Assembly: GCA_964428135.1 (NCBI GenBank)
Contig: CAYRXD010000003.1
Location: 1 to 36,475, forward strand
Reading direction: 5' to 3'
DNA: 36,475 nucleotides
Source of the DNA: an uncultured Candidatus Saccharibacteria bacterium
GTDB lineage: Bacteria; Patescibacteriota; Minisyncoccia; Phycocordibacterales; CAIJYI01
Shown here piece after piece: positions 1,831-32,302 of this stretch (positions within the stretch are counted from its first letter, which is position 1; the number at the start of each line of letters is the position of its first letter). The position numbers were made by a program, and so were the translations under genes. The notes beneath the pieces were generated by a model. That model did no database searches, was not told the origin of the DNA, and worked only from the letters and a program-made list of their open reading frames with translations.

Positions 1831-3132
1831 ATGAAAGCAAACAGGGTTCTTATTATTGGTGCCGGGCTTGCGGGGCGTAAAACTCTTCAGCAGATAAGAA
1901 AGGAGCGCCGCTCGGATATTTTTGTTGTTGGTTTTGTCGACGATGATCCAAAAAAACAAGATACGGAGATCGGCGGGGTGGCTGTTCTTGGGGTGATCGA
2001 CACTATACCGCGCTTGGTAAAAGCAGAAAACATAGATCAGGCCCTGATCTCTACGCCATCGGTGGGCGGAGAACTCGTTACCCGAGTGACCCGCCTGCTT
2101 CCGCCCGGAATCTCCATAAAAGTCCTTCCGAGTATCTCTTCGGTTATTTTAGGGAAGGTTGATCTCTCATATATCCGCGATATTGACCCGTCCGACCTGA
2201 TCGGCAGGCCACTTGTAAAATCCAACCAAGAGATCATTTCGGAAAAAGCAAAAGGGAAAAGTTTTTTGGTCACCGGGGGCGCCGGTTCGATAGGGAGTGA
2301 GATTGTACGTCAGCTGTACGATTCAAAGGCAAAGCGAGTGGTTGTATTGGATTCATGGGAAGAAGGTGTTTATCATCTGCTTGAAGAGCTTGGACCAAAA
2401 CGCAGCGCTGAGCGTCCGGATCTGAAAACTTTTATCGGCAATATTCGCGATAAAAAACGAGTTGAGGAAATACTCGAACTTTTTCCTGTCGATGTAATTA
2501 TTCACGCCGCGGCGTACAAACACTTGCCGTTGATGGAAGATAACCCCGGAGAAGCGCGAAAAACGAACTTCCAAGGTACGAAAAATATGCTGGATATCGC
2601 CATAAAGTACGGAATCAAGGATTTCGTGCTGATCTCTACGGACAAAGCGGTAAATCCGTCTTGTGTAATGGGGGAGACGAAACGCCGAGCGGAGCTCCTC
2701 GTGAAGGCTTACGCGAAGAAATATACCAATCATCGTTTTTGCGCAGTACGGTTTGGAAATGTTTTGAACTCTTCCGGAAGCATCGTTCCGAAGTTTTTGA
2801 AACAAATACAGAACCGGACGGCGCTCACTATCACCGATAAGGAGATGACTCGTTATTTCATGTCCATTCCCGAAGCCGTATCTCTCGTGCTTTCGTCATG
2901 GGTGATATCAAAAAATGGGCAGATACTCCTTTTGGATATGGGTGAACCGATAAAGATTCTCGATCTTGCCATAAACCTCCTTCGGATACACGGACTTGAA
3001 CCGTATAAAGACATAGAAATAAAAGAAACCGGCATACGTCCGGGAGAAAAGATACATGAAAAACTCGCTTATGACAAACATGGTATCAAACCGAGTTCTC
3101 TAGAACGGATCTTTATCGCGGAAGAGATATAA
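1831..3132 (+). CDS. Polysaccharide biosynthesis protein of the CapD/PglF/WbpM family (NDP-HexNAc 4,6-dehydratase type), soluble form
   Basis: 433 aa. Rossmann motif LVTGGAGSIGSEI. Family motifs AAAYKHLPLMEDNPGEARKTNFQGT, ISTDKAVNPSCVMGETKRRAE, VRFGNVLNSSGSIVPKF and MTRYFMSIPEAVSLVL. The N-terminal CoA-binding-like domain is present, but the N-terminal TM helices of WbpM/PglF are absent. Confidence 0.85.
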   Translation: MKANRVLIIGAGLAGRKTLQQIRKERRSDIFVVGFVDDDPKKQDTEIGGVAVLGVIDTIPRLVKAENIDQALISTPSVGGELVTRVTRLLPPGISIKVLPSISSVILGKVDLSYIRDIDPSDLIGRPLVKSNQEIISEKAKGKSFLVTGGAGSIGSEIVRQLYDSKAKRVVVLDSWEEGVYHLLEELGPKRSAERPDLKTFIGNIRDKKRVEEILELFPVDVIIHAAAYKHLPLMEDNPGEARKTNFQGTKNMLDIAIKYGIKDFVLISTDKAVNPSCVMGETKRRAELLVKAYAKKYTNHRFCAVRFGNVLNSSGSIVPKFLKQIQNRTALTITDKEMTRYFMSIPEAVSLVLSSWVISKNGQILLLDMGEPIKILDLAINLLRIHGLEPYKDIEIKETGIRPGEKIHEKLAYDKHGIKPSSLERIFIAEEI

Positions 3133-3223
3133 AAAGTCGAAAGTCTATAAAGTCCGTAAAGTCAAAAGTCACGACGGCGTCGGCGTACTTTATAGACTTT
3201 AAGGACTTTTGACTTTATGGACT
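3133..3223. repeat. Segmented inverted repeat built from AAAGTC / GACTTT words; cargo-less hairpin, probable bidirectional terminator
   Basis: Left arm: aaagtcgaaagtctataaagtccgtaaagtcaaaagtcacgacg. Right arm: cgtactttatagactttaaggacttttgactttatggact. By hand the words pair in helices of about 5+7+7+6+4 bp separated by small internal loops. The element is flanked by an A run (3131-3135) and a T run (3225-3229). It lies between convergent genes, and the right arm supplies the last codons and stop of the AsnB-like gene. Confidence 0.75.
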
Positions 3224-4972
3224 ATTTTTCCTCGTTTCAAGCCACAGCTCCAAACACAAAAGCATCCAAATTTTGTAGGATTGGAATCCATGTTTGTTTG
3301 CTTGGAAGTCGTGAAGTATTTTTCGAATTTCTTTTTCGTCGAGTATTCCATAGATGCGAGCTTCTTTTTTCAGAAGCTTTTCATCAATAAAATTTTGTAC
3401 CTCCGGCAACCTCAGCCATTCTTCGACCGGTGCGCCGAAACCCTGTTTTTTTCGGTGTACGAAATCCTGCGGCATAAATTCGCCTAACAAGTCTTTTAAA
3501 ATTTTTTTCCCTATTTTATATTCTTCGGGTAAATTGAATACGAACTCGGCAAGCTGATAATCGAGAAAAGGAGAACGCACTTCGAGCGAATGCATCATGG
3601 ACATGCTATCCGCTTTTAAGAGAAGCTGTCCGGGGAGATAGGTAGCGAGGTCAAAGAGATTTATTTTTTCAATCGGGTTGAGTTTACTTGCCGTCAAGCT
3701 GTCGGGAATGAATCCATTGATATGATTTTCCTTTCCCCATAATTTTTTTCTCTCCTTTTCGCTGAAAACGGAAATAGTCCGGATGTATCCTTGAAAAGCG
3801 TTAAGAAAGATTTTTTCAAACGTATGCGCCTTATACGATAAGTGCTTATGTCTCGTATACCAGCCATAGCCCATAAAGAGCTCATCTGCGCCATCGCCGG
3901 AGAGCGCGACTTTTACTTTGCTTGCGGTAAATTGCGCCAGAAGAGCGTGCGGAAAATCGGAAGAGTCGGCGTGCGGTTGGTCAAAATAGGACAGTACCTC
4001 TCTAAGCTCTTCGATAAGGTTTTCGTTCGCTTGAAGCGTATAATGGTCGGTACCTACTTCTTCAGCGGCTTGTTTTGCGTAGGGGAGTTCGCTTCGGAGA
4101 TCGCCGTATCCGAGTGAAAAGGTTTTAATTGGCTTTTGTAAAAACCTTTGCGCATAAGCCGTAACGAGTGTCGAGTCAACTCCGCCGGAAAGGAATGAAC
4201 CTATTTCCACATCCGCAATCATTCTTTTTTTGACGGCTTCGGTAAAGAGCCGGCGCACTTCTTCTTTTGCGTCATTGTAGGAAATGGTGATGGGGGAATA
4301 TTTGAGTTCCCAATATTTCTTTTTTGAAAGTTCGCCATTCTGATACGTAGCGCTTTCTGCAGGTGCAAGTGTAAATATGTTTTTGTAGACGGTCTTCGTC
4401 GGCGGAATATACATCAGGGCGAGATAATTATCCATTGCTTCCATATCCAGAACGCCTGTTACTTTTCCGGAAGCTAATACCGCCTTTATCTCCGATGCAA
4501 AAATAAAATTTTTTTCATCGTCGAATGCATAATAGAACGGTTTCTTCCCAAAACGGTCGCGCGCCACGAAAAGCGCATTTTTTTTATTATCCCAGATAGC
4601 GAATGCGAACATGCCGTCAAGATATTTCGGGCACTCCTCGCCGTATTCCGCGTATGCCTTCAAAATAACTTCGGTATCAGAGTTGGTAGAAAATTTGTGT
4701 CCTTTTTGTTGGAGCGAGGCTTTCAGTTCAAGGTAATTATATATCTCACCGTTGAAAGTAATGGCATAGTTGCGCGCATTGTCCTTCATTGGCTGGTGTC
4801 CGCTTGAAAGGTCAATAATTGAGAGTCGTGTTTGCCCAAAGATACATCGAGGAAAAGCGAGTGTCCCTTTTTCGTCGGGTCCGCGCTTTGCGAGACTCGC
4901 GAGCGCCAAATCAACCCCATTTTTTTTGTAGGGTTCAAGTGAATTTCCAACAATTCCAAAGATGCCGCACAT
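3215..4972 (-). CDS. Asparagine synthase (glutamine-hydrolysing) family amidotransferase, glycan-cluster type (WbpS/AsnB-like)
   Basis: 585 aa. N-terminal MCGIFGIVG (Ntn Cys2). SGGVDS PP-loop motif (FLSGGVDSTLV). Typical AsnB length and order. Confidence 0.85.
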   Translation of the reverse strand: MCGIFGIVGNSLEPYKKNGVDLALASLAKRGPDEKGTLAFPRCIFGQTRLSIIDLSSGHQPMKDNARNYAITFNGEIYNYLELKASLQQKGHKFSTNSDTEVILKAYAEYGEECPKYLDGMFAFAIWDNKKNALFVARDRFGKKPFYYAFDDEKNFIFASEIKAVLASGKVTGVLDMEAMDNYLALMYIPPTKTVYKNIFTLAPAESATYQNGELSKKKYWELKYSPITISYNDAKEEVRRLFTEAVKKRMIADVEIGSFLSGGVDSTLVTAYAQRFLQKPIKTFSLGYGDLRSELPYAKQAAEEVGTDHYTLQANENLIEELREVLSYFDQPHADSSDFPHALLAQFTASKVKVALSGDGADELFMGYGWYTRHKHLSYKAHTFEKIFLNAFQGYIRTISVFSEKERKKLWGKENHINGFIPDSLTASKLNPIEKINLFDLATYLPGQLLLKADSMSMMHSLEVRSPFLDYQLAEFVFNLPEEYKIGKKILKDLLGEFMPQDFVHRKKQGFGAPVEEWLRLPEVQNFIDEKLLKKEARIYGILDEKEIRKILHDFQANKHGFQSYKIWMLLCLELWLETRKNSP

Positions 4973-4985
4973 GTGAGTTTATCAA

Positions 4986-5013
4986 GTTGTAAAGTTCATA
5001 AAGTTCGACGGCG
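4986..5013. repeat. Degenerate left-arm copy of the AAAGTC word repeat (AAAGTTC variant)
   Basis: gttgtaaagttcataaagttcgacggcg shares the ...aaagt(t)c..cgacggcgt end with the left arm at 3155-3180. It lies just downstream of the MazF-like gene. Confidence 0.45.
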
Positions 5014-5043: not shown

Positions 5044-5391
5044 TTAATCCGTGACGTATTTTACATATTCAAGCTGAATGCGATTTATTTCGTTTTGGTC
5101 TAAATGTCCTATTTTTTTCTGCAACAAACTCATATCTGCCGCGAATGATTGGGCAAGGAGAACAAATGATGTCATGGTCAGGCCGTTGTCTGTCGTCGGC
5201 AAAACTTCCACTACGTATTTCTGGTGAAGTTTCTTTTTTGAGGTGCAAGGAGCAACAGTGACTGTTTCGCCGGTCACTTGGGTTACTATGACGTGCGGGC
5301 GTATCCCATTTTGGATATGACCGATCGCATTCGTATTTTCGACAAGCCAGACGTCTCCCTTCTTTATTTTTTTATGTACGATGTTTTGCAT
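5044..5391 (-). CDS. Type II toxin, PemK/MazF family
   Basis: KKGDVWLVENTNAIGHIQNGIRPHVIVTQ...TVAPCTSKKK...LLAQSFAADMSLLQKKIGHLDQNEINRI matches the MazF/PemK layout (GD-W-V, G-x-RP-V-V, P-x-TS, Q...D..L..KIG.L). The first ATG is at 5391. The ORF-track start at 5418 is a TTG. Confidence 0.75.
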   Translation of the reverse strand: MQNIVHKKIKKGDVWLVENTNAIGHIQNGIRPHVIVTQVTGETVTVAPCTSKKKLHQKYVVEVLPTTDNGLTMTSFVLLAQSFAADMSLLQKKIGHLDQNEINRIQLEYVKYVTD

Positions 5392-5500
5392 GGAGAATAG
5401 CTTGCTGTTCCAAGGCAATTTGTTGCCAAAATTTAGACTCCGTCATGGTTTTACTAGGGTGTTTTTTTTGGAAAAGTGAATTTTTCTTTGCGGTTTTCAT
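5372..5500 (-). CDS. 42-codon ORF upstream of and overlapping the MazF-like gene; candidate (atypically short) antitoxin
   Basis: My translation is MKTAKKNSLFQKKHPSKTMTESKFWQQIALEQQAILHAKHRT. The ORF is absent from the supplied track (under 60 aa). It overlaps the toxin start by 20 nt, and a near-consensus promoter ends 6 nt before its ATG. I recognise no antitoxin family. Confidence 0.35.
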   Translation of the reverse strand: MKTAKKNSLFQKKHPSKTMTESKFWQQIALEQQAILHAKHRT

Positions 5501-5506
5501 GCCTTT

Positions 5507-5535
5507 ATTATATACCAAAAACTTTATATTGGCAA
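5507..5535 (-). promoter_or_regulatory. Near-consensus sigma70 promoter of the toxin module, leaderless architecture
   Basis: Minus strand reads TTGCCA (5535-5530), 17-nt spacer, TATAAT (5512-5507), then 6 nt (aaaggc) to ATG 5500. Confidence 0.6.
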
Positions 5536-5547
5536 ACTAAAAAACGA

Positions 5548-5580
5548 GGGACTTTATTTATAGACTTTAAGGACTTATAT
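5548..5580. repeat. Right-arm copy of the AAAGTC/GACTTT word repeat
   Basis: gggactttatttatagactttaaggacttatat. Its terminal ggacttatat is identical to 10947-10956. In both places it contains the stop codon of the upstream minus-strand gene (fucosyltransferase here, wzm there). Confidence 0.6.
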
Positions 5581-6450
5581 TCGTACCCACCCTTCTGCTA
5601 AAACATCCTCGGAGCTTGTCGTTTTTTTCTTCGGATTATTGAACCATCGTGTCGGACCGATGACGATTTTATTCGGATTTTGTGAGAGCCATGCGCCCCA
5701 CCATGAGAATGTGCTGTTCGCGATGATATGATGCTTGCATAAGCTCATCAGGCGCAAGTCTTCATAATTTTTGTCGGCGCCGTTGTGGTCGACGTATGTG
5801 GTGGGTACGCCGAGTTTGATGTTTTCTTTCACCCACGCATGGTCATCGGAGAAAACAAATACATGAGGATTGGAAACTTTTTCAAGAATTAATCCAATGG
5901 CTTTTTTGTAGTAATTCAATCCTTGGGTGCCGAAATAGTCATTTGATACCGGATCGCTGACGTAGTCGCCGCGGCGTATGTGCATCATGACAGAGTTTGT
6001 CGCTAGTATTTTATCGGCAACTTCTTTGTCTTTTCCGGAGAGGGGAGTTTTTACGACGATCTCTTTTCTAAGAATATCCGCGATGTCTTTAAAGTACTTT
6101 TCAGTCTGCCAATCACCGTCGAGGTAGACATTATTTCCCGTTCGTAAGATGCGCGGATCGAAGTGAAATTGCCTCTGCTGTATGTATTTTCGTTCCGCGA
6201 TAAGCTTATTAAAGATGTACCACTTTCTTCCTGGCTTTCTTTTTAATTTTTTAAATCGCGCCACTTCTTCTTTTGTCGCAAAATTTTCGACGATGTTAAA
6301 ATGACTCAAGCTGTAGGCATGAAGCTTGTATTCTTCAAAGCCCGTGATATCGAGCTTCAATTCCGTATGATGTATTTCGGCAAGATGCCGCCCAAGCGCG
6401 TATTGAAAGAGTTGGTTTCCCAAGCCCCCGATAAGTTTAACGATTATCAT
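5575..6450 (-). CDS. Alpha-1,2-fucosyltransferase (glycosyltransferase family 11)
   Basis: 291 aa. MIIVKLIGGLGNQLFQYALGRHLA, HIRRGDY and ANSTFSWWGAWL are GT11 hallmarks. ATGA overlap with the upstream gene. Confidence 0.85.
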   Translation of the reverse strand: MIIVKLIGGLGNQLFQYALGRHLAEIHHTELKLDITGFEEYKLHAYSLSHFNIVENFATKEEVARFKKLKRKPGRKWYIFNKLIAERKYIQQRQFHFDPRILRTGNNVYLDGDWQTEKYFKDIADILRKEIVVKTPLSGKDKEVADKILATNSVMMHIRRGDYVSDPVSNDYFGTQGLNYYKKAIGLILEKVSNPHVFVFSDDHAWVKENIKLGVPTTYVDHNGADKNYEDLRLMSLCKHHIIANSTFSWWGAWLSQNPNKIVIGPTRWFNNPKKKTTSSEDVLAEGWVRI

Positions 6451-9226: not shown

Positions 9227-10489
9227 TTAATAATGTTCCCACTTCAAACGTGGGCGCACAACTCCCGGAATTCTCCGGTTGAAATCTGATTGTCGAGCGT
9301 TTTCTATATCCTCGGCAACCGTAAAAGTAATTGCATCTTGTTTGTAAAAATGGATGCGCAAGGGACGCATACTTGAGAGAGCAATTCCTGCAACATAGGT
9401 TGTGTCATTAAGTAAATCTTCAGGAATCCACATGATGGACGTGTGTTCTCCAACTGTACCGAGTTTTTCATCAAATTCAGCGTGGTTTATAAAAGCAGTT
9501 TCTCCTCGCATGGTAAAAATATGGATATTTGGAATCGGAATGTAGCCTTCTTTGAGAATCTCATACGTAAATTCGACACCGATTTTTTTGTTTGCAGTAA
9601 TGAATGATATGGCATTTTTATTTTCATCTACAATCTTAGCAGAATGAAGTACGGCCACATCATCACCAAAATGTTCTAACTCAAAATTTGCTTCGGAACT
9701 GCGGGATTTAACATCGTTTAAATAAGTGTTAATTACGTCTTCTGTATTCCCAAACATTTTCACCTTTCCTTTCTCAAGTAAAATCGTCTTCGGACAGAGT
9801 TGTTGTATCGCGGACATATTGTGACTTACGAAAAGAATCGTGCGGCCTTTGCCGTGGGTGACTTCTTCCATTTTGCCGAGGCACTTTTTTTGGAATTCAG
9901 CATCACCGACGGCGAGAACTTCGTCTACCAGGAGAATGTCCGGCTCCATGTGGGCGGCGACGGAGAAGGCGAGGCGGACGTACATGCCGCTTGAATAGTA
10001 TTTCACTGGGGTATCAAGAAATTTTTCGATGCCGGAGAAGGCGACTATTTCGTCAAATTTCGAGGCTATTTCTTTTTTCGTCATACCAAGAATAGCGCCG
10101 TTCAAGAAAATATTTTCACGTCCGGTGAGCTCTGGGTGGAAGCCGGTGCCGACTTCAAGGAGGGAGGCGGCTTTGCCGTGCATGATAATCTCGCCTTCCG
10201 TTGGCGGGGTGATACCCGTAAGGATTTTTAAGAGCGTACTTTTCCCTGCACCGTTTTGTCCGATGATGCCTACTACCTCGCCCTGGTTTATGGAAACGCT
10301 CACGTCTTTCAGTGCCCAGAATTCTTCCTTTGTGCCGATGCCAGCCACGCTTTTCGCTTTCGCTTTGAGAAATCGAAAGGGGCTTTTGAGAATATTCGTC
10401 AGTACATCACGCAATGCAATATAACCGCCACGTTGATGAGTGATGTTGTACTTCTTTCCAATATTTTTTATGGTTATTATGGGGGGCAT
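9227..10489 (-). CDS. wzt: Polysaccharide ABC exporter ATP-binding protein Wzt/TagH type with ~170-aa C-terminal extension (Wzt_C-like carbohydrate-binding domain)
   Basis: 420 aa. Walker A GQNGAGKSTLLK, signature YSSGMYVRLAF, Walker B ILLVDEVLAVGD. The region after about residue 250 is beta-rich and non-NBD. Confidence 0.85.
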   Translation of the reverse strand: MPPIITIKNIGKKYNITHQRGGYIALRDVLTNILKSPFRFLKAKAKSVAGIGTKEEFWALKDVSVSINQGEVVGIIGQNGAGKSTLLKILTGITPPTEGEIIMHGKAASLLEVGTGFHPELTGRENIFLNGAILGMTKKEIASKFDEIVAFSGIEKFLDTPVKYYSSGMYVRLAFSVAAHMEPDILLVDEVLAVGDAEFQKKCLGKMEEVTHGKGRTILFVSHNMSAIQQLCPKTILLEKGKVKMFGNTEDVINTYLNDVKSRSSEANFELEHFGDDVAVLHSAKIVDENKNAISFITANKKIGVEFTYEILKEGYIPIPNIHIFTMRGETAFINHAEFDEKLGTVGEHTSIMWIPEDLLNDTTYVAGIALSSMRPLRIHFYKQDAITFTVAEDIENARQSDFNRRIPGVVRPRLKWEHY

Positions 10490-10490
10490 A

Positions 10491-10568
10491 AAAAGTCAAA
10501 AGTCCTTAAAGTCTATAAAGTCCGTAAAGTCACGACGATGCCGGACTTTATGGGCTTAATAGACTTTT
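10491..10568. repeat. AAAGTC word-repeat hairpin (left arm plus short right arm) between wzt and the four-helix-bundle gene
   Basis: aaaagtcaaaagtccttaaagtctataaagtccgtaaagtcacgacg, then atgcc, then ggactttatgggcttaatagactttt. It shares a 25-nt identity (aaagtctataaagtccgtaaagtca) with 3143-3167. The right part encodes the C-terminus (IKSLLSP*) of the four-helix-bundle protein. Confidence 0.75.
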
Positions 10569-10901
10569 AATCAATCCTGAAAGCAGCCTTGAAATTTCAG
10601 TGGATAAGGCGTAATACTTCGTATACTGTTCTTTCGTTACGTACCCAAGGCTTAAGGCTAAATATAGCATTGATCTCACTTCTCCGCACGAACCTTTGGC
10701 TATGAATAAGAAATGTTTAAATTCTTTATCGCCCCTTCTTTCGAAGCCTTCGGCAATGTTATTCATGATTGATACTGACGCTCGCTGTATTTGGTCTCTA
10801 AATCCAAAGTCTTTGCTACTCCTGAATGTTTTATAAATAAACAAAGTTAATTCGTTTGCTTTCTGCCAAGCGACAATATCTTCAAATGTATCTATTTTCA
10901 T
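10548..10901 (-). CDS. Four-helix-bundle protein (23S rRNA intervening-sequence protein / Avd family, PF05635-like)
   Basis: FEDIVAWQKANELTLFIYKTF...FGFRDQIQRASVSIMNNIAEGFERRGDKEFKHFLFIAKGSCGEVRSMLYLA is the classic family signature. The likely start is MKIDTF at 10901 (or ATG 10910). The longer track ORF reads into the repeat. Confidence 0.85.
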   Translation of the reverse strand: MKIDTFEDIVAWQKANELTLFIYKTFRSSKDFGFRDQIQRASVSIMNNIAEGFERRGDKEFKHFLFIAKGSCGEVRSMLYLALSLGYVTKEQYTKYYALSTEISRLLSGLIKSLLSP

Positions 10902-10910
10902 AACGGTCAT

Positions 10911-10956
10911 CGTGACTTTAAGGACTTTATAGACTTTCGACTTTATGGACTTATAT
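10911..10956. repeat. Right-arm AAAGTC/GACTTT word repeat; inverted partner of 10508-10534
   Basis: cgtgactttaaggactttatagacttt (10911-10937) is complementary to aaagtctataaagtccgtaaagtcacg (10508-10534) at 26 of 27 positions. It ends in ggacttatat, which contains the wzm stop codon. Confidence 0.8.
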
Positions 10957-11769
10957 AATATCCGCAAAGTACCGCTCCACCTTTTTAAAATATATCACCC
11001 CGATAATGAGAAGTACGGCACAGGCGGCTAAGGAATCCGCCATGAGTACCCAGTTTATCTTTGTGGCGCCAAGAAGGGCGGCGCGGGCGGTTTGAATAAC
11101 GCCCATCATGGGATTAAAGGCGAGCATCCACGAATATTTTCCAGCGATGCTTGCCGGATAGATGACGGGTGTGAGGAAAAGGAGAATCTGAATGAAGTAA
11201 GGAAGCACGAAACGCACGTCGCGGTATTTCACGTTTATTGCTGCAAGGAAAAGTCCGCCACCGACGGCCGCCATGAAGGTGATGATGAGGAGCACCGGAA
11301 GAATCAGAAGTCCTGTGAGGTGAGGAGTGTAGCCGTAATAGACCATCATTCCGACGAGGATGACTGATGAGATGGCGAAGTCAACAAATTTGGTAGCGAC
11401 GGCCGAGAGAGGAAGAATGAGCCGCGGGAAATACACTTTCGTAATAATGGCTTGGTTACTGATGAGCGTGCCGCTTGTTTCAGAGAGGGCGGTAGAAAAA
11501 AATTGCCAGAAGAGAAGTCCGGTGTAGACAAAAATTGGATAAGGGATTCCGTCGGAAGGAACGTTGAGAAGTTTTCCAAAAAAGAGACTGAAAACCACCA
11601 TGGTCATGAACGGCTGAAAAACTGCCCAAAGGACTCCAATGAGGGTTTGTTTGTATCGCACTTTAAAATCTCGCCACGTAAAAAAATACAAAAGTTCTTT
11701 GTAAGCCCAGATTTCACGCATATCGTCCCAGCTGAGGACTTTTTTTGGACGGATAACTGTTGTTTTCAT
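10951..11769 (-). CDS. wzm: Polysaccharide ABC exporter permease (ABC-2 type)
   Basis: YKELLYFFTWRDFKVRYKQTLIGVLWAVFQPF plus 6 predicted TM segments. The first ATG is at 11769 (MKTTVIRPKK). The track start at 11787 is a TTG. Confidence 0.85.
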   Translation of the reverse strand: MKTTVIRPKKVLSWDDMREIWAYKELLYFFTWRDFKVRYKQTLIGVLWAVFQPFMTMVVFSLFFGKLLNVPSDGIPYPIFVYTGLLFWQFFSTALSETSGTLISNQAIITKVYFPRLILPLSAVATKFVDFAISSVILVGMMVYYGYTPHLTGLLILPVLLIITFMAAVGGGLFLAAINVKYRDVRFVLPYFIQILLFLTPVIYPASIAGKYSWMLAFNPMMGVIQTARAALLGATKINWVLMADSLAACAVLLIIGVIYFKKVERYFADII

Positions 11770-11775
11770 TATAAA

Positions 11776-11781
11776 ATGATA
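11776..11781 (-). promoter_or_regulatory. Candidate -10 box 6 nt upstream of the wzm ATG
   Basis: Minus strand reads TATCAT, tttata, ATG(11769). I found no clear -35. Confidence 0.3.
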
Positions 11782-11796
11782 TGCCAATATACAAAT

Positions 11797-11882: not shown

Positions 11883-12242
11883 TCACGCTTTTTGAAGATG
11901 GAGCGAGTTGCGGAGGGATGTCAGTTCAAGCTCGAGCTTAAGCACGCGACTCTTGAGTTCTTTTACTTCTTTTTGCTCGGTTTTTTGAGAAAGTTCCGCT
12001 TTGATATCTTGAAGTTCGTCGTCTATGCGAGCAAGATATTCCATTATGGTTTTAAAGCTGCTCCGCATTTCGGTTTCCATACTATCCATCCGTCCTTCTA
12101 TTTTATCCACTTTCCCTTCCATACTATCCATCCGTCCTTCCAGCCGGTCACCGCGTTCATTTGCCGTTTTTAACCCTTCAATCATTATGGCAAATTTTTC
12201 ATCAATATTTTCCAAGATAGCGCCAAAATCATCATGCGACAT
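11883..12242 (-). CDS. Small coiled-coil protein with an internal 14-residue duplication; function unknown
   Basis: 119 aa with heptad-like charge pattern. EGRMDSME occurs twice. No TM segment and no signal peptide. Confidence 0.6.
   Translation of the reverse strand: MSHDDFGAILENIDEKFAIMIEGLKTANERGDRLEGRMDSMEGKVDKIEGRMDSMETEMRSSFKTIMEYLARIDDELQDIKAELSQKTEQKEVKELKSRVLKLELELTSLRNSLHLQKA
12075..12140. repeat. Exact 24-nt direct repeat at 42-nt (in-frame) spacing inside the coiled-coil gene
   Basis: ttccatactatccatccgtccttc occurs at 12075-12098 and again at 12117-12140. Confidence 0.9.
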
Positions 12243-23897: not shown

Positions 23898-25781
23898 ATG
23901 GAAACTGCATCGGACCGAAAAATATGTATTCTTGGTATTTCCGCTTATTATCATGATAGCGCTGCGGCGCTTATTGTAGACGGTACTATTGTTGCGGCGG
24001 CTCACGAAGAACGTTTTACCCGAAAGAAACATGACGACCGGTTCCCAAAAAACGCCATTCGATATGTATTATCAGAACAGGGACTTTCTCTTGCTGATCT
24101 CGATGCGATAGCTTTTTATGACAAGCCGTTCCTGAAATTCGAACGGCTTTTGGAAATATATCATGTCTTTTCCCCAAGAGGATTCAAGAGTTTTGCGATG
24201 GCGATGCCTGTATGGATAAAAGAAAAACTTTTCATGCGGGGAAATATCTGGAAAGAACTGGAAGAGATACATGGAGGAAAGATCATAAAACGCCCGGCGC
24301 TTCTCTTTTCGGAGCATCATCTTTCTCATGCAGCGAGTGCTTTTTATCCGTCTCCTTTTGAGAAAGCGGCGATTCTCACAGTAGACGGCGTGGGTGAATG
24401 GGCGACGACCACGATTGGGTTGGGGGAAGGGAAGAATATCTCCATTCTGAAAGAAACGCATTTTCCGCATTCGCTCGGGCTTCTCTATTCGGCTTTTACA
24501 TATTACTGCGGATTCAGGGTGAACAGCGGGGAATACAAGCTCATGGGGCTTGCACCATATGGTCATAAAGGGAGTGCTCGGGTGGATGAATATAAAAAGA
24601 AAACCCTTGATACTCTCATTAGTCTGAAAGAAGATGGCTCACTTGCTTTAAATATGGAGTACTTTGAATTTGCTACGGGCGTTCGGATGTGTGATGTTAA
24701 AAAATGGGAAACACTCTTCGGTATTTCTCCTCGTCCGGCGGAGAGTAATATTACACAGGAACACTCGGATATGGCATTGGCTATACAAGAGATAACGGAA
24801 GAGGCGATGCTTCGTCTTGTCCGTCACGCCAAAAAACTTACAAACGCCGAGAATCTCGTGCTCGCGGGCGGCGTGGCGCTCAATTGTGTTGCGAACGAAA
24901 AAATTCGCGAGGCGGGAATATTCAAAAAAGTATGGGTACAACCGGCGGCGGGAGATGCGGGGGGCGCTCTTGGCGCCGCTTTTGCCGCTTATCATATCTG
25001 GGCAGATAAACAGCGTGTTCTTCTTGGCGGAGATGACGCAATGAATGGGTCGTATCTTGGCCCGGAGTTTTCCGATATTGAGACGATGCGCGTTATCAGG
25101 AAGTATAATGCATCATTCAAGAAATATGAAAGTTTTGAAGATCTTGCAAAAGACGCCGCCACTCTCTTGTCTGACGGAAAGGTGGTGGGATGGATGCAGG
25201 GAAGAATGGAATGGGGTCCGCGAGCGCTCGGCAACAGAAGTATTCTCGGTGATCCTCGGGTGCCGGACATGCAAAAGAAACTCAACTTAAAGATAAAACA
25301 GCGCGAGGGTTTCCGACCGTTTGCACCATCTGTACTTGCGGAAGACATGGCGGAATATTTCGAAACGAATGCCCCTTCTCCTTATATGCTCTTTACTGCG
25401 CCAGTCAAAAAATCTCGCCGAAAGCCGCTTGCACCCGCTGGTACGCCGCTCTTTGAAAGACTCTATGCTCCGCGGTCCGATATTCCCTCCGTCACGCACC
25501 TTGATTATTCGGCCCGTATTCAGACGGTCTCGAAAGACACGAACGAAAGATACTGGAAACTCATTTCCGCGTTTAAGGAAAAAACCGGCTACGGTCTCAT
25601 AATCAATACGAGCTTTAATGTGCGGAACGAACCGATCATCTGTACCCCCGAAGACGCCTATCGATGCTTCATGTCGACTGAAATGGACTATCTCGTGGTC
25701 GGAAACATTTTATTCGAGAAAACATCCCAGCCGAAATTTATAAGCGGAACATTTAACCTCAAGTTCAATGAATTGGATTAA
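23898..25781 (+). CDS. Carbamoyltransferase (NodU/CmcH/SxtI family)
   Basis: 627 aa. ILGISAYYHDSAAALIVDGTIVAAAHEERFTRKKHD, EHHLSHAASAF, LAGGVALNCVAN, GRMEWGPRALGNRSILGDP, NTSFNVRNEPIICTPEDA. Confidence 0.9.
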   Translation: METASDRKICILGISAYYHDSAAALIVDGTIVAAAHEERFTRKKHDDRFPKNAIRYVLSEQGLSLADLDAIAFYDKPFLKFERLLEIYHVFSPRGFKSFAMAMPVWIKEKLFMRGNIWKELEEIHGGKIIKRPALLFSEHHLSHAASAFYPSPFEKAAILTVDGVGEWATTTIGLGEGKNISILKETHFPHSLGLLYSAFTYYCGFRVNSGEYKLMGLAPYGHKGSARVDEYKKKTLDTLISLKEDGSLALNMEYFEFATGVRMCDVKKWETLFGISPRPAESNITQEHSDMALAIQEITEEAMLRLVRHAKKLTNAENLVLAGGVALNCVANEKIREAGIFKKVWVQPAAGDAGGALGAAFAAYHIWADKQRVLLGGDDAMNGSYLGPEFSDIETMRVIRKYNASFKKYESFEDLAKDAATLLSDGKVVGWMQGRMEWGPRALGNRSILGDPRVPDMQKKLNLKIKQREGFRPFAPSVLAEDMAEYFETNAPSPYMLFTAPVKKSRRKPLAPAGTPLFERLYAPRSDIPSVTHLDYSARIQTVSKDTNERYWKLISAFKEKTGYGLIINTSFNVRNEPIICTPEDAYRCFMSTEMDYLVVGNILFEKTSQPKFISGTFNLKFNELD

Positions 25782-26934
25782 AAACCATAAAGCTGATATT
25801 GCACTAGCTCTTGTGAGTTTTGTTGTGACGATTGTTGTCGTTGATGCGGTGCTGTATTTTACTCATTACCGGTATGTTATTCTCAAGACAATTTATCCGC
25901 GGTTCTATTTTATGAAAGATCTTGAGATAGGACATGATATCGGAATAAACGTTGCCACAACAACTCATCTTTTTGAAGATTCCTCCTATCCTGTTTGGTC
26001 AAATGATCTGGGTTGTTTTGACACTGCTTATGCAAGCGAAACGCCCTATATATATCTTGCCGGCGATAGCTTGACGTGGGGTTTTAGCCCTTTTGAGGAT
26101 ATGTGGGGAACAAGGACGCAAGATATTGTAGGTGTTCGAACCCTTAAGTGCGGCGTAACGGGCGGTTATGGTACGAAGCAGGAATTTATAAAAGCATCGC
26201 GCATTCTTGCTCGCCTGCCAGCGCCCCCGAGCCTCATCGTCGTAGAGCACTTTGACGGCAATGACATTGACGAGGATACGAATTTCCCCATCAATACGGT
26301 GTACAATGGGTATGTAATGCCCAATCTCGCTAAGGGCGGAGTCACGGAAGCGCAGGCGGAAGAAAAATATGCTCGTTTTGATGCGACATGCACGACGGAA
26401 CCGCCAGCACACCCGACGGTACAGCAAATACGATGTTTCCTTTCCAATCATTCCGTACTCTATAATTTTATCAAGAAAGACATGAGGGGGTGGCTGACCG
26501 CGCTCTTTCCTCAATCAGTTCTTGAAAAGTTTGATTTAATCGCGCATGAAAAAAAAGTTGCGGTGTTAAGTAACGATACTGGTGATTTCGAGAAACATCT
26601 CCAAAATATTCTATCGTTCAAGAAGTTGGCGCAAGAGAAAAACTCAAAACTTTTATTCGTTCTTGTTCCCGGTAATAATGAAAAATTAAAATTATTTCTT
26701 GATAAAGAAAATATATCGTACATTGATCTCGGTCCAGCTTTTGAGAAATACGGGAAAGTAAAACCGCTCCGCTGGAAAATCAACGGACACTGGAACCCTA
26801 ACGGTCAGCATCTTGCCGGGTTTGCGATATCAAAATTTATCATTGAAAATGATCTCGTCTCTGTTCCGGACAAGGAGGGTTCGCTCATAACCATTAATTC
26901 ATCTATGCGAACAGAATTTGGGGGTCCGTTGTAG
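25768..26934 (+). CDS. Membrane-anchored SGNH/GDSL-like protein (AlgJ/AlgX/DltD-type O-acyl transfer or esterase candidate)
   Basis: N-terminal TM helix. YLAGDSLTWGFSP (GDS block I). NGHWNPNGQHLAG resembles the D-x-HW...G block of the AlgX/AlgJ/DltD families. Overlaps the carbamoyltransferase stop by 14 nt. Confidence 0.55.
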   Translation: MNWIKNHKADIALALVSFVVTIVVVDAVLYFTHYRYVILKTIYPRFYFMKDLEIGHDIGINVATTTHLFEDSSYPVWSNDLGCFDTAYASETPYIYLAGDSLTWGFSPFEDMWGTRTQDIVGVRTLKCGVTGGYGTKQEFIKASRILARLPAPPSLIVVEHFDGNDIDEDTNFPINTVYNGYVMPNLAKGGVTEAQAEEKYARFDATCTTEPPAHPTVQQIRCFLSNHSVLYNFIKKDMRGWLTALFPQSVLEKFDLIAHEKKVAVLSNDTGDFEKHLQNILSFKKLAQEKNSKLLFVLVPGNNEKLKLFLDKENISYIDLGPAFEKYGKVKPLRWKINGHWNPNGQHLAGFAISKFIIENDLVSVPDKEGSLITINSSMRTEFGGPL

Positions 26935-27011
26935 AGTTGAAGGTTTATCCAGCTCTAAAGTTACGCTTAAAAACACACTTTATAGCTTTATGAACTGCTC
27001 ACTTTATAAAC

Positions 27012-27932
27012 TCATTTGTACCATTTATACGTCGCGACAGCTCCGTCTTCAAGGGAAATTTTGTGTTTCCATCCGAGTTTATGGAGCCGGTTTACGTTGA
27101 GCCATTTTCGGGGCGTACCGTCGGGCTTGGTCGTGTCCCATACAATTTTTCCTTTGAATCCGACGGTCTTTTTAACGAGCCCCGCGAGTGTTTTAATGGA
27201 AACGTCTTTTCCTGTGCCGATGTTGACGATATCGGGCTTATCGTAGGTATTCATGAGAAAAACACAGGCATCCGCAAGGTCATCGACGTGGAGAAACTCT
27301 CGCTTCGCTTTGCCAGTACCGAAGACGGTCACTTCTTGTTGTCCCGCAATCTTCGCTTCGTGGAATCTTCGCATGAGTGCGGGGAGGACATGCGCTCTTT
27401 CGTAATCAAAATTATCATTCGGACCATAGAGGTTGGTCGGCATGACGGAAATGAAATTTGCGCCATACTGTCGATGGTATGCCCGACACATCATGATGCC
27501 AGCAATCTTTGCCGCAGCGTATGCCTCGTTGGTCGGCTCAAGCTTTCCGTTCATAAAGTATTCTTCCTTGATGGGTTGAGGAGCAAGGCGGGGATAAATA
27601 CAGGAACTCCCGAGAAAGAGAAGTTTTTTCACTCCGTTCACCTGCGATTGGTGGATGATGTTGTTTTGTATTGTGAGGTTTTCAAAAATAAACTCCGCCG
27701 GGCGCGTATCGTTTGCCAGTATTCCGCCGACTTTAGCCGCAGCGAGAAAAACATACTCCGGTTTTTCCTCGGCGAAAAAATCCGCCACCGCTTTTTGGTC
27801 AAGGAGATCGAGTTCCGCACGTGTTCTAAGAATGAGATTTTTATAGCCATTCTTTGCGAGGTGGCGCACGATCGCGGAGCCGACGAGCCCTCTGTGTCCC
27901 GCAATATATATCTTCGAGCTTTTATTCATCAT
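27012..27932 (-). CDS. fcl: GDP-4-keto-6-deoxymannose 3,5-epimerase/4-reductase (GDP-L-fucose synthase; could alternatively act as ColC-type GDP-colitose synthase)
   Basis: 306 aa. [55 protein letters not shown]. Confidence 0.85.
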
Positions 27933-29445: not shown

Positions 29446-29553
29446 ATAACCTTTTTAGTTTCCGATAGTTACACATTATATAGGAGCATTCGGAGATAGG
29501 CAATTTGTTGTGATTACTGTTGTCATTTTGTGTTAAAAGTATATTCTTTTGAT

Positions 29554-30933
29554 ATGTATTCTGTTATTCTCTGCGGGGGGTCGGGGACGCGGTTGTGGCC
29601 GCTTTCCCGGAAAAATTACCCCAAACAATTTCTCGCTCTCGCGGGTCGCAACTCTCTTTTACAGGAGACGTTTTTGCGCATGCGAAAAGCGATGCCGACA
29701 GAGCGTATTTTCTTCGTGACGAACAAGCAGAATTTTTTTAATGTACTCAATCAGATACGAGAGATACATCCTGATTTTGAAGAAAAAAATATAATCATGG
29801 AACCGGCGAGCAAGAATACGTTGCCTGCGATTGCCTGCGCCGTAAAGTATTTGCAGGACACCATCGGCGTTCCATCAACTGAACCGATACTTTTCGCGCC
29901 GGCGGATCATCTTATCGCAAACAGCGATGCTTTTATACAGCTCATGTTGGAGATGGAAAAAGAAATCGACAACGCTATCGGGACTATAGGCATTATGCCG
30001 ACGAAACCGGAAACGGGGTACGGGTACATACAGAAAGGCGAGGCGCGCGGAGGACATTTCGCGGTTTCCGCATTTAAAGAAAAACCGACTCATGGTGTTG
30101 CCGCAGAATACGTTGAGAGCGGCAAGTTTTTGTGGAATTCCGGCATGTACATGTTTTCGATTAAAACTTTTGCTGAAGAGCTGAGGAAATACGCACCGGA
30201 AGTGGCGAAAGTATTCCAATCATCGCCGGAGGGTTTCGTGGAAAATTTTTCACGTCTCCCCGCGCTTTCTATAGACAATGGCATTTCGGAAAAGTCAGAC
30301 CGCGTGATCGTCTTTGAGGGAAATTTCGGCTGGAGCGACATAGGGTCTTTCGACAGCTTGGCGGAGGCGACTGCGGGAACGGCAGAATATAAACCGCGTC
30401 ACGTGGGGGTTGATTCCAGAAATGTGTTCGTCCATTCGACAAGCAATCGGCTTATCGTCACGCTCGGCGTCGATGATCTGGTGGTGGTGGAGAACAACGA
30501 CAGCATCCTCATTCACAAAAAGGGACGAAGCGAAGATGTGAAAAAAGTCCTTCGCCATTTGGAAGAAAACAAATACCCGGAGATAGAGCATAATGTGATA
30601 GTGCATCGCCCGTGGGGAAGGTATGAAGTCCTTCTTGATGCGCCGTTTTATAAAACAAAAAAACTTCTGGTATATCCCGGGAAAAAACTTTCGCTCCAGT
30701 CTCACCAGCACCGTGCCGAGCACTGGGTGGTGGTGTCGGGCGTGGTGAAAGTCACCAAAGGCGAGGAAACATTTCTCCTGCAAAAAAACGAAGGAACATT
30801 CATTTCCTCACACACCAAACACCGTATCGAAAATCCCGGGAAAGTGAATTTGGAAATTATCGAAGTCCAGACGGGAGAGTATCTCGGAGAGGATGACATT
30901 GCCCGGTATGAGGATGATTTTAAACGAGTATAA
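29554..30933 (+). CDS. manC: Mannose-1-phosphate guanylyltransferase / mannose-6-phosphate isomerase (type II PMI-GMP)
   Basis: MYSVILCGGSGTRLWPLSR, EPASKNTLPAI, GWSDIGSFDS. C-terminal cupin with VHRPWGRYEVL and HRAEHWVVVSG. The first ATG is at 29554; the track start at 29530 is a GTG. Confidence 0.9.
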   Translation: MYSVILCGGSGTRLWPLSRKNYPKQFLALAGRNSLLQETFLRMRKAMPTERIFFVTNKQNFFNVLNQIREIHPDFEEKNIIMEPASKNTLPAIACAVKYLQDTIGVPSTEPILFAPADHLIANSDAFIQLMLEMEKEIDNAIGTIGIMPTKPETGYGYIQKGEARGGHFAVSAFKEKPTHGVAAEYVESGKFLWNSGMYMFSIKTFAEELRKYAPEVAKVFQSSPEGFVENFSRLPALSIDNGISEKSDRVIVFEGNFGWSDIGSFDSLAEATAGTAEYKPRHVGVDSRNVFVHSTSNRLIVTLGVDDLVVVENNDSILIHKKGRSEDVKKVLRHLEENKYPEIEHNVIVHRPWGRYEVLLDAPFYKTKKLLVYPGKKLSLQSHQHRAEHWVVVSGVVKVTKGEETFLLQKNEGTFISSHTKHRIENPGKVNLEIIEVQTGEYLGEDDIARYEDDFKRV

Positions 30934-30950: not shown

Positions 30951-31016
30951 CCAAAACTCAAAATAGCAAATTCTAGCATATGCTAGAATTTGCTATTTTG
31001 AGTTTTGGCTTTTTAT
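30951..31016 (+). terminator. Perfect 58-bp palindrome followed by a T run (terminator of manC)
   Basis: ccaaaactcaaaatagcaaattctagcat | atgctagaatttgctattttgagttttgg spans 30951-31008 with 29-bp arms and no mismatch. cttttt follows. Confidence 0.7.
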
Positions 31017-31058: not shown

Positions 31059-32201
31059 TTAGCGAAGCACTTTGAAAACTTCCGGGCGCGCAGAGACATA
31101 TTTTGCGAATGCCATACTGCTTGAGATTCCGGGCGACTCCACCCACATATAATTTATCAGAAGAGGGCGTAATGAATCAATGCCGATATGAAAGTCGTCT
31201 TCTCGTTCTGTGTCGGAGCGTTTCGGGCGGATGCCTGAGTGCGACCATTCTATATCGTCAGGTTCCAGCTCGACGCCGAAAGCGTTTGCAACTCGCAAGA
31301 ATTCTTCTTTTGGCGAGGGATCTTCGTTATAAAATGTTTTTGAAGGAACTCTTTTTGCGTTCGGTCCCAAGAAAAGACTGCCGTCCGGACGTGGTCCGAA
31401 ATGGATGCCTTTTCCCGGATGTTTCGATGAAACCACCGGATAGACGAGGCGGCTAACGAGGTTTCGCTTTTCCGGATTGATAACCTTATAATACTCTCCG
31501 CGCCACGGGTATTGGAGATAGCGTTTTTCGCCGAGAGCCATATTTGCAATGTCGTCGGCGTAGAGTCCGGCGGCATTGATGAGCACTTTTGCATGCACTT
31601 CCATTTTTGTCGTTTCGATGATGGTGCGATTTCCCTCGAAACGAATGTCTTTGATTTCGTTTTCGTAAAAGAAGCGTACGCCTGAGTAAACAGCCTCGCA
31701 CTCAAGTGCCTGCACAAACCGGAGAGAATCGATCACTGAAACACTTGGAATAAAAACTCCAGCGGCGGCGTTGATATTCGGCTCGAGTTTTTTGATTCCG
31801 ATACCCGTCAGAACTTCAAAATCTATGCCGTGCTTTTTCCCGCGGCGCAAGAGGTGCCACAATGATGCCGTTCCTTCGTACACGATGCGCGGACGCCGTA
31901 TCTCCGAAGAGGGAACGGCAATCACCATTCCGCATTCATCAAGCAGCGGGACATTGTTTTCTTTTGCAAAATCATGCGCGAGCACATACCCCATTTTGGC
32001 GAACCGCGCCTTCCAAGAATTCGGTTCTTGATGGAAGCCGGAGTGAAGCACCCCGCTGTTTTTCGAGCTTGTTTCCAGTCCCGGAGCGCGATGGCGTTCA
32101 AGGACGGCAATGGAACGACTAGGGAAAACTTCCGCCATGCGCAATGCCGTCGCAGCTCCCATCGTTCCCGCACCGATGATCGCGACATCGTAGGTATTCA
32201 T
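31059..32201 (-). CDS. FAD-dependent oxidoreductase (DAO family; LhgO/GlpD-like)
   Basis: MNTYDVAIIGAGTMGAATA (GxGxxG). Start at 32201, preceded by the SD AGGAGAGAGAC. The upstream extension to 32261 has no support. Confidence 0.7.
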   Translation of the reverse strand: MNTYDVAIIGAGTMGAATALRMAEVFPSRSIAVLERHRAPGLETSSKNSGVLHSGFHQEPNSWKARFAKMGYVLAHDFAKENNVPLLDECGMVIAVPSSEIRRPRIVYEGTASLWHLLRRGKKHGIDFEVLTGIGIKKLEPNINAAAGVFIPSVSVIDSLRFVQALECEAVYSGVRFFYENEIKDIRFEGNRTIIETTKMEVHAKVLINAAGLYADDIANMALGEKRYLQYPWRGEYYKVINPEKRNLVSRLVYPVVSSKHPGKGIHFGPRPDGSLFLGPNAKRVPSKTFYNEDPSPKEEFLRVANAFGVELEPDDIEWSHSGIRPKRSDTEREDDFHIGIDSLRPLLINYMWVESPGISSSMAFAKYVSARPEVFKVLR

Positions 32202-32302
32202 TGTCTCTCTCCTTATTCTGTTAGTAAAAATTCTGTATATGTCTAATATGGACCGTACCATAACTCACTTCATATGGCAAGTAGCGTATAGTTTCTTTCT
32301 CG

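Follow-up and report, generated by a model that had tools for sequence, protein, structure and literature searches.

Intervening sequences (IVSs) of rRNA genes are the closest described counterparts of the elements dealt with here. The IVS of Coxiella is a selfish element of 428 nt with a 28-bp terminal stem and an S23p open reading frame (ORF), which is cut by RNase III (PMC4990558), and for candidate phyla inserts of 16S and 23S rRNA genes have been reported that carry ORFs for IVPs, i.e., members of the 23S_rRNA_IVP / S23p protein family, as well as many short (<200 bp) ORF-less inserts, which were called "uncharacterized" and suspected of being IVSs (PMC11270868). Earlier work has also noted IVP genes that are located between cas genes (PMC3936711). 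A second group of possible relatives are the cyanobacterial sequences of the short tandemly repeated repetitive (STRR) type, 7-bp repeats of unknown function that are capable of forming hairpins between operon genes such as hupS and hupL and for which roles in stability or coupling were proposed (PMC2670836); according to Vioque (1997), STRRs also occur inside the gene for RNase P RNA. In this study, we analysed a stretch of 36,475 nt (positions 1 to 36,475 of contig CAYRXD010000003.1, hereafter the window), whose DNA matches a 27-kb contig of the metagenome-assembled genome (MAG) GCA_016180445.1 and whose proteins have their best relatives under the label Patescibacteria. The subject is a hairpin of AAAGTC words at 3133-3223, located between a capD-like gene and asnB. 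This hairpin is the gene-less form of a cassette found at 10491-10956 of the same window, and an IVS-type cassette, consisting of an IVP gene between five-word arms and accompanied by ORF-less derivatives, is the best-supported explanation for both.

The hairpin at 3133-3223 and the IVP cassette at 10491-10956

The left arm of the hairpin (3133-3170) begins immediately after the capD stop codon (3130-3132), its AAAGTC words starting at 3133, 3140, 3149, 3158, and 3165, and the right arm (3186-3223) provides the last four codons and the stop (KNSP*) of asnB on the minus strand. Between them, the loop (3171-3185) retains the inner boundary ACGACG, which adjoins the cargo in the full cassette, too. 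The first-pass annotation, which was made from the letters of the window, had described five AAAGTC words followed by five GACTTT words; the number of five words per arm stands, but only three words of the right arm are exact GACTTT, the inner one being TACTTT and the outer one GACT. Counted on both strands, AAAGTC occurs 45 times in the window versus 24.6 ± 4.8 expected from shuffled sequences, and the surplus of 21 copies lies completely in four intergenic clusters, with the remainder of the window at expectation. Four arrays of at least three AAAGT words with a spacing of 6-10 nt were detected in the window, but none in any of 200 shuffles. The hairpin noticed in the first-pass annotation is thus confirmed. 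RNA folding of the hairpin region resulted in -36.8 kcal/mol (z = -6.8) with AU-rich, segmented stems. A search of the window against Rfam revealed only 16S rRNA above the gathering score and, at E <= 10, nothing but chance miRNA-like matches for the hairpin; likewise, no Rfam family covered the hairpins in 18 other loci.

Comparison with the cassette of 466 bp showed that both sites are built alike. The two cassette arms (10492-10538 and 10907-10956) are 94% complementary to each other, and each arm of the hairpin is 97% complementary to the opposite arm of the cassette (3133-3164 to 10913-10944 and 3184-3216 to 10492-10524). An identical block of 25 nt at 10508-10532, already noticed in the first-pass annotation, has its partner at 3140-3164 instead of 3143-3167. 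In the sense orientation of the IVP gene, the two sites have the same order, namely arm α, the ACGACG boundary, either the IVP gene or the 15-nt loop, and arm β'. The 3' end of the IVP gene (10542-10568) is itself composed of word-like sequence. In the sense RNA of 10480-10965, the arms formed a stem of about 50 bp that encloses the ORF, both in the minimum-energy and in the centroid fold (z = -4.9).

Family architecture and the link between residue 58 and the word

Our survey set comprised 205 fetched loci (1.29 Mb) with 344 arrays. A scan of one genome per species with the pattern AAAGTC-YNT-AAAGTC-YNT-AAAGTC resulted in at least 119 loci, and the 80 titles listed were assigned to Bacteroidota (41), Patescibacteria (28), Proteobacteria or Bdellovibrionales by label (5), and unclassified organisms (6). 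As negative control, the looser pattern AAAGTC-N1-3-AAAGTC-N1-3-AAAGTC was found in at least 120 loci of viral contigs, with no hairpin or IVP gene in the 120 examined. In the 205 loci, gaps between (AAAGTN)n and the following (NACTTT)n were bimodal, being either at most 80 nt (30 hairpins) or 301-500 nt (54 cases), the latter corresponding to the size of an IVP gene, and the opposite order of arms at a gap of up to 80 nt did not occur. All five long-gap cases of the genome scan (342-445 nt) enclosed an IVP gene or a remnant of one. Thus, a dispersed family with gene-carrying and gene-less copies, as suggested by the first-pass annotation, indeed exists. In the literature searched, strings of AAAGTC words were not found in any paper.

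From the other direction, 80 loci were obtained by scanning metagenomes for relatives of the IVP, and 74 IVP genes had enough flanking sequence. At least three AAAGT words were detected upstream in 52 of the 74, with three or more ACTTT words there in only one, and at least three ACTTT words downstream in 53, with AAAGT words in two; two or more words on both sides were present in 57 of 74. About 70% of the 74 genes carry both arms. Words appear in the dialects AAAGTC, AAAGTT, and AAAGTA, and the two arms agree (T/T in 33, C/C in 18), the sixth base being the only one that matches between arms. When words were counted with a loose core, five per arm was the sharp mode, reached by 36 of 64 arms of hairpins and by 39 of 102 arms of IVP genes. 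Spacings of 9 nt were preferred over 7 nt and these over 8 nt, but 7 and 9 nt were freely mixed and no fixed spacing pattern was detected in five-word arms. The conserved C-terminus of the IVPs (...IKTL*) is encoded by AAR-ACT-TTA-TAR and therefore is itself the first downstream word. In locus L248 (92-2142), a GDP-mannose-dehydratase-like ORF with a large intein-like insert runs with its C-terminus into an array of 23 AAAGTC words, which is translated as ...KVYKVHKVKSL.

The strongest link between protein and words was found at residue 58 of the IVP. Among 65 distinct proteins, this residue was Asp in 24 of 24 with C-dialect arms and Asn in 41 of 41 with T-dialect arms (Fisher 2.5e-18), the next-best alignment column reaching 4e-5, while the proteins were about as similar within dialects (65.8% identity) as between them (64.5%). 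Counted over 83 proteins, the words around genes for Asp58 proteins (n = 27) were 209 C, 33 T, 9 A, and 4 G, and those for Asn58 proteins (n = 55) were 275 T, 65 A, 17 C, and 22 G. With the column of residue 58 left out, a neighbour-joining tree required at least nine switches between Asp and Asn. Of 12 disjoint pairs of closest Asp and Asn proteins (73-84% identical), 11 clearly differed in dialect, locus L266 being the exception. GC content was rejected as the cause of the split, since that of the loci is alike (38.6% for Asp versus 36.9% for Asn), and gene conversion between the codon of residue 58 and the words was rejected by inspection, since the codon base would fall on a position in a joint whose purine/pyrimidine class is the opposite one. 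In a prospective check, we took four variants at residue 58, namely three Asn proteins and the sole Glu protein, from the 120 proteins most closely related to the IVP of the window. All four were in line, the Asn proteins having the predicted AAAGTT/AAAGTA arms and the Glu protein AAAGTC arms, in keeping with an acidic residue that reads C. In the structure model, residue 58 lies in the context FERRG-D-KEF at the start of helix 3, just past the loop between helices 2 and 3. The modelled IVP of the window (predicted local distance difference test score 92) superposes on Xcc0516 (2gsc), BT_0352 (2rld), and Avd (4dwl; 8ub7 as ribonucleoprotein of a diversity-generating retroelement, DGR). The entries 2gsc and 2rld contain five chains each, Xcc0516 and Avd were described as pentamers, and Avd in the DGR complex binds a defined RNA element.

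The conservation of pairing between arms expected in the first-pass annotation was not seen. Pairing of an arm with its own partner (-29.5 kcal/mol) was not superior to that with arms of the same dialect from unrelated loci (-29.7 kcal/mol, p = 0.83), so that selection acts on the word rather than on any one stem. For the same lack of element-specific complementarity, compensatory covariation of the classical kind was rejected for the joints. These results bear directly on the idea of a purely RNA-structural element without a dedicated protein, in which the stem serves mRNA stabilisation, translational coupling, or as RNase III site, and in which the words arose from the 3' end of the IVP gene via slippage and concerted evolution. 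Though the strong predicted stems, the matching sixth base, the identity of the codons for K-T-L-stop with the first downstream word, and the roles proposed for the cyanobacterial 7-bp repeat hairpins (PMC2670836) speak for it, a stem needs neither a fixed word nor a polarity, yet the order of arms was 30 to 0; foreign arms pair equally well and many arms stand alone. The main objection is that a stem independent of the protein does not predict a mid-protein residue that switches together with the sixth base, so that we consider this idea unlikely.

Further word arrays were found with distant IVPs (31-51% identity) from plasmids of cultured bacteria (L338-L350), 10 of the 13 examined being flanked by inverted arrays of other words. 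Given as upstream/downstream pairs, these were AAAAGGG/CCCTTTT in Nostoc sp. ATCC 53789 and Geminocystis, AAGGTT/AACCTT in Riemerella, ACAGGTG/CACCTGT in Anabaena 90 (between cas6 and cas4), GGGAGTA/TACTCCC in Nostoc edaphicum, TCAGGAG/CTCCTGA in N. punctiforme, Aulosira, and Trichormus, GGGTGTA/TACACCC in Calothrix, and GAGGACGGA/TCCGTCCTC in Azospirillum. The arrays of Pseudanabaena were direct and not inverted. Two distant four-helix-bundle genes were situated between cas6 and cas4. A literature search revealed no paper that links STRRs with four-helix-bundle genes.

Insertion sites, gene ends, and copies in 16S rRNA

While ORFs make up 86% of the DNA, 85% of the arrays lie outside of called ORFs; the words are thus intergenic and not the compositional artefact that the first-pass annotation had named as an alternative. 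Hairpins (n = 28) were located 0-20 nt from both neighbours and stood between co-directional (16), convergent (7), or divergent (5) genes. The outermost word is mostly (T/A)AGTC and merges with the upstream stop codon, so that the arms supply gene ends; as the element fills the few bases between a stop and the next start, its outer words often become stops, starts, or short C-terminal extensions. Such ends had been noticed in the window before, and the C-termini of AsnB (...RKNSP*) and of the four-helix protein (...SLLSP*) as well as the stops of the GT11 gene and wzm, both within ggacTTAtat (5571-5580 and 10947-10956), were verified. AsnB ends with ...ELWLETRKNSP* in the window versus ...ELWLETR* in L241, where the hairpin is missing at this place. 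Directly adjoining tmRNA genes were found for hairpins in L219 (5814-6309) and L233 (1150-1627), and a hairpin in L224 (122-352) is located between two tRNA genes. In L167 (50-1970), a MAG of Moraniibacteriota, arrays occupy spacers of the ribosomal-protein operon directly before rplX, rpsH, and rplF.

Occupied and empty sites, a comparison that the first-pass annotation had suggested, could be identified for the wzm-wzt junction. It carries the IVP cassette in the window, L241/L242, L243-245, L248, L259, and L332, while in five relatives (Wzm 79-90% identical; L326-L331) only 4-8 nt separate the wzm stop from the ATG of wzt. The closest Wzm relative of occupied L241 is that of empty L326 (94% identical). 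The cassette takes the exact place of the spacer (TAA/GTCCAT-AAAGTC ... GACTTT-TT/ATG), and no target-site duplication is apparent between empty and occupied junctions. For 81 elements, duplications of 2, 3, 4, 5, and 6 nt were observed 5, 3, 1, 0, and 0 times versus 9.9, 3.0, 0.7, 0.2, and 0.1 times expected from permuted flanks.

In the first-pass annotation, the hairpin was read as a likely non-autonomous transposon of the type of miniature inverted-repeat transposable elements (MITEs) or repetitive extragenic palindromic (REP) elements, which would also serve as an intrinsic terminator in both directions and indicate points of insertion. The element is palindromic, intergenic, and present in many copies with occupied and empty sites, its gene between inverted repeats resembles a REP-associated tyrosine transposase (RAYT) gene between REPs, and the stem at 3133-3223, located between convergent genes, is followed by T-runs on both strands. 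Nevertheless, the family is not one of classical MITEs because target-site duplications are missing, and neither a transposase nor a RAYT was found nearby, the enclosed gene encoding a helical bundle of 117 aa. Nor is it a general terminator, because copies lie inside operons; more than half of the hairpins are co-directional and some divergent, others adjoin tRNA and tmRNA genes, further copies occur in the ribosomal-protein operon and in 16S rRNA, and a terminator scan did not flag the hairpins. Taken as a whole, this explanation seems quite unlikely, though some termination may take place at the convergent capD/asnB site.

Copies inside an rRNA gene were detected in L132, a MAG of Magasanikiibacteriota, whose 16S rRNA gene (1864-3705) has 1,842 nt in comparison to a model of 1,533 positions. 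It holds one C-dialect hairpin (about 3131-3217), just before the segment GGAGGAAGG...GACGTCAA, and one T-dialect hairpin in the last long helix (about 3527-3607). Judged by our reading of the flanking conserved sequence, they seem to belong to helices 40 and 44. Two further hairpins lie just outside of the gene, one before (1212-1302) and one after it (4194-4252). The same gene harbors an unrelated insert of 110 nt near model position 80.

The window contains additional copies (Table 1), and the gene assignments on which the first-pass annotation relied were confirmed. The further copies that it listed are real and were located at 10492-10538 with 10907-10956, at 4973-5013 with 5548-5580, and, in decayed form, at 26932-27013, the arm beside asnB starting at 4973 instead of 4986. 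This decayed arm abuts the asnB start codon (4970-4972, minus strand), as the left arm of the full cassette abuts that of wzt (10487-10489, minus strand), and the stop codons of GT11 (5575-5577) and wzm (10951-10953), both on the minus strand, are included in the respective right arms. The decayed hairpin at 26932-27013 starts at the TAG stop of ORF 25768-26934 and gives the end ...EFIK* to ORF 27012-27932 on the minus strand.

At the GT11-asnB junction, the cargo differs between relatives, with a PemK pair in the window and an IVP gene in L243, whereas L241 has a hairpin without cargo together with an AbiE pair; the inner boundary CGCCGTCG is common to all three. A near-consensus promoter-like site (TTGCCA-17-TATAAT, minus strand 5535-5507) accompanies the PemK pair between the arms. 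PADLOC matched neither the IVP nor the PemK pair to a defence family. Exchange of cargo within the same arm and inner-boundary sequences, always in the loop, could be expected of DNA recombination sites, either attC-like or a hot spot, at which small selfish genes such as IVP or toxin-antitoxin genes are swapped by a recombinase encoded elsewhere. However, 54 of 55 long-gap pairs of IVP-gene size enclosed an IVP gene and not varied cargo, the hairpins were not found in cassette arrays, no integrase was present nearby or among the scanned ORFs of the window, and no attC-like conserved core was apparent, a core of the type GTTRRRY not being seen in the arms by eye, without a formal search. Recombination sites are therefore a very improbable explanation.

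Table 1. Word arrays, their cargo, and adjacent genes in the window.
Feature	Position	Strand	Details
capD-like dehydratase gene	1831-3132	+	
Gene-less hairpin, left arm	3133-3170	+	five AAAGTC words; joints G, TAT, CGT, A
Gene-less hairpin, loop	3171-3185	+	ACGACGGCGTCGGCG, 15 nt
Gene-less hairpin, right arm	3186-3223	+	five words, TACTTT-ATA-GACTTT-AAG-GACTTT-T-GACTTT-ATG-GACT
Asparagine synthase gene (asnB)	3215-4972	-	
Decayed AAAGTT-dialect arm	4973-5013	+	inner boundary CGACGGCG; abuts asnB start codon
Alternative cargo between arms	5044-5518	-	PemK/MazF-like toxin (5044-5418; PF02452, E = 1e-15), small upstream ORF, promoter-like site
GACTTT-dialect arm	5548-5580	+	includes GT11 stop codon
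GT11 fucosyltransferase gene	5575-6450	-	
wzt	9227-10489	-	
Full cassette, left arm	10491-10538	+	five AAAGTC words and ACGACGA; abuts wzt start codon
Full cassette, cargo	10548-10901	-	117-aa four-helix-bundle protein, 23S_rRNA_IVP / S23p, Avd-like, Asp at position 58; PF05635, E = 1e-35; TIGR02436, E = 7e-34
Full cassette, right arm	10907-10956	+	CGTGACTTT, then GACTTT words, end GGACTTATAT; includes wzm stop codon
wzm	10951-11787	-	
Decayed AAAGTT/AACTTT hairpin	26932-27013	+	between convergent genes; z = -2.8

Apart from the word arrays, the window revealed a perfect palindrome of 58 nt (30951-31008; 29 + 29 nt, 100% complementary, loopless), which is unrelated in sequence to the AAAGTC words and sits between the convergent ORFs 29530-30933 (+) and 31059-32261 (-). 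An exact direct repeat of 24 nt, the copies being 42 nt apart (12075-12148), is located within ORF 11883-12242 (-), whose product is a coiled-coil protein in which the motif EGRMDSME is repeated. The polysaccharide locus is bordered by 118-1725, which encodes a glycine-rich, secreted-looking protein with Gly_rich_2 and a K1-lyase C-terminal domain.

Proposed mode of action and comparison with known systems

Based on these results, we consider it likely that the hairpin at 3133-3223 is an ORF-less derivative of a selfish IVS-type IVP cassette, whose arms are read by an IVP pentamer and pair with each other as an RNA stem. Most likely, the arms are in the first place binding arrays for the pentamer and secondarily the strands of an RNA stem by which the insertion is rendered harmless. 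The cassette consists of a gene for a four-helix-bundle IVP of 114-117 aa between inverted arms, each usually of five AAAGTN words spaced by 7 or 9 nt. It is common in Patescibacteria and Bacteroidota and lies exactly in the few bases that separate a stop from the next start codon and also inside rRNA genes. On top of the observed anatomy, distribution, empty sites, and covariation of protein and word, we propose that an IVP homopentamer may bind one arm as single strand with one word per subunit, residue 58 reading the sixth base (Asp or Glu reading C, Asn reading T or A). On this view, hairpins without a gene and solo arrays would represent non-autonomous sites, bound by an IVP that is supplied in trans. 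Within the transcript, the two arms might pair into a segmented stem of 40-50 bp, similar to the IVS stems cut by RNase III, which could make the insertion tolerable between cistrons and in rRNA. The covariation of residue 58, the mode of five words, and the pentameric relatives together fit a model of one pentamer per arm.

Several observations weigh against this explanation. Arms of three to four or more than six words are common, and in the cyanobacterial relatives the word counts per arm are not five. In Bacteroidales, solo arms are the majority of arrays, and their orientation with respect to adjacent genes was not biased towards either strand (35 versus 27), which gives a role at the RNA level no support. 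A few elements are mixed, namely L266, where Asn goes with C words, as well as L294 and the window's site B. The covariation is built on one alignment column and on trees of proteins of 114 aa, in which a hidden clade structure may be present. At the wzm-wzt junction, the identities of the IVPs track those of Wzm, so that repeated gain by active mobility accounts for the pattern no better than a long vertical residence in which the cassette was occasionally lost in a clean manner; no mobility enzyme was found, and the IVP subfamily was absent from the viral contigs searched. Binding of the arms by the IVP, the strand and type of nucleic acid bound, the processing, and the means of spread are what we infer from these patterns.

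More tentatively, and with some doubt, the scheme could be extended to IVPs in general, which would be pentamers that recognise short words in a sequence-specific manner on single-stranded nucleic acid, following the simple code at position 58 (Asp/Glu for C, Asn for T/A), each subfamily forming a pair of autonomous and non-autonomous elements with arrays of its own; rRNA IVSs, AAAGTN hairpins, and cyanobacterial STRRs might thereby be explained together. IVP / S23p relatives are very numerous (7,999 at E <= 1e-5 among 8,000 candidates scored), and their genes occur in rRNA genes, cas operons, and polysaccharide loci without known role. IVSs and STRRs are likewise old puzzles, the function of the latter having been unexplained since 1990. 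IVP genes, IVSs, and STRRs would be tied by one anatomy, i.e., a protein gene between inverted arrays of its own words, and the IVP family and its repeats would obtain a first testable function. If true, a large "hypothetical" family would be given a role and possibly a programmable nucleic-acid-binding scaffold would be at hand. For annotation, the words account for odd C-terminal extensions and stop or start codons in the compact genomes of Patescibacteria and for short uncharacterised inserts in their rRNA genes.

In comparison to known systems, the elements share with MITEs such as Correia, RUP, and BOX that they are short non-coding inverted-repeat elements at gene boundaries, able to donate stop or start codons; they differ in the lack of target-site duplications and of a parent transposase, the IVP gene being the only recurrent enclosed gene, and in their modular arms. 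REPs and bacterial interspersed mosaic elements (BIMEs) with RAYTs are also dispersed extragenic palindromes without target-site duplications and with one protein gene between inverted repeats, which suggests a pair of autonomous and non-autonomous elements here as well, though the topology is only analogous; the repeats here are word arrays, and the enclosed PF05635 protein is a helical bundle of 117 aa without known catalytic motif and not a Y1 (IS200/IS605-like) transposase.

For the proposed reading of words, the trp RNA-binding attenuation protein (TRAP) may serve as no more than a working analogy, a ring-shaped homo-oligomer each subunit of which reads one short word of a single strand, with variable, non-conserved spacers and a number of words near that of subunits. 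TRAP differs from the IVPs in its unrelated fold, in being an 11-mer and not a pentamer, and in its 3-nt (G/U)AG words in place of 6 nt, and binding by IVPs is putative. Avd shares the fold and the pentameric barrel (Foldseek probability 1.00, TM 0.79) and has as its ligand a defined RNA element that lies beside its own gene, but its sequence identity is only about 14%, and reverse transcriptase, template repeat, and variable repeat are missing here. STRRs are similar as arrays of words of about 7 nt in intergenic spacers, which form hairpins and are also found within a structural RNA gene, and the IVP genes on plasmids of Nostoc, Anabaena, and Calothrix are flanked by heptamer arrays of STRR type. 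They differ from the elements of the window in their words and phyla, and the spacing here mixes 7 and 9 nt.

The strongest likeness is that to IVSs, known from Leptospira, Coxiella burnetii, Brucella, and Xanthomonas. Size (466 bp here versus 428 nt in Coxiella), terminal inverted repeats forming a long stem around a PF05635 protein, the S23p/IVP ORF in long forms and ORF-less hairpins as short forms, the presence of some copies in rRNA, and the sporadic distribution with evidence for gain and loss (PMC4990558; PMC11270868) are shared. Differences were found in the location, since all copies of the window are intergenic and most copies of the family lie between protein-coding, tRNA, and tmRNA genes and not in 23S rRNA, in the arms, which are modular arrays of about five 6-nt words and not a unique inverted repeat, and in the covariation of protein and word, which is not reported for IVSs in the literature searched. 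Altogether, anatomy, empty sites, and the hairpins in 16S rRNA match the elements of the window to IVS-type elements that live mostly outside of rRNA.

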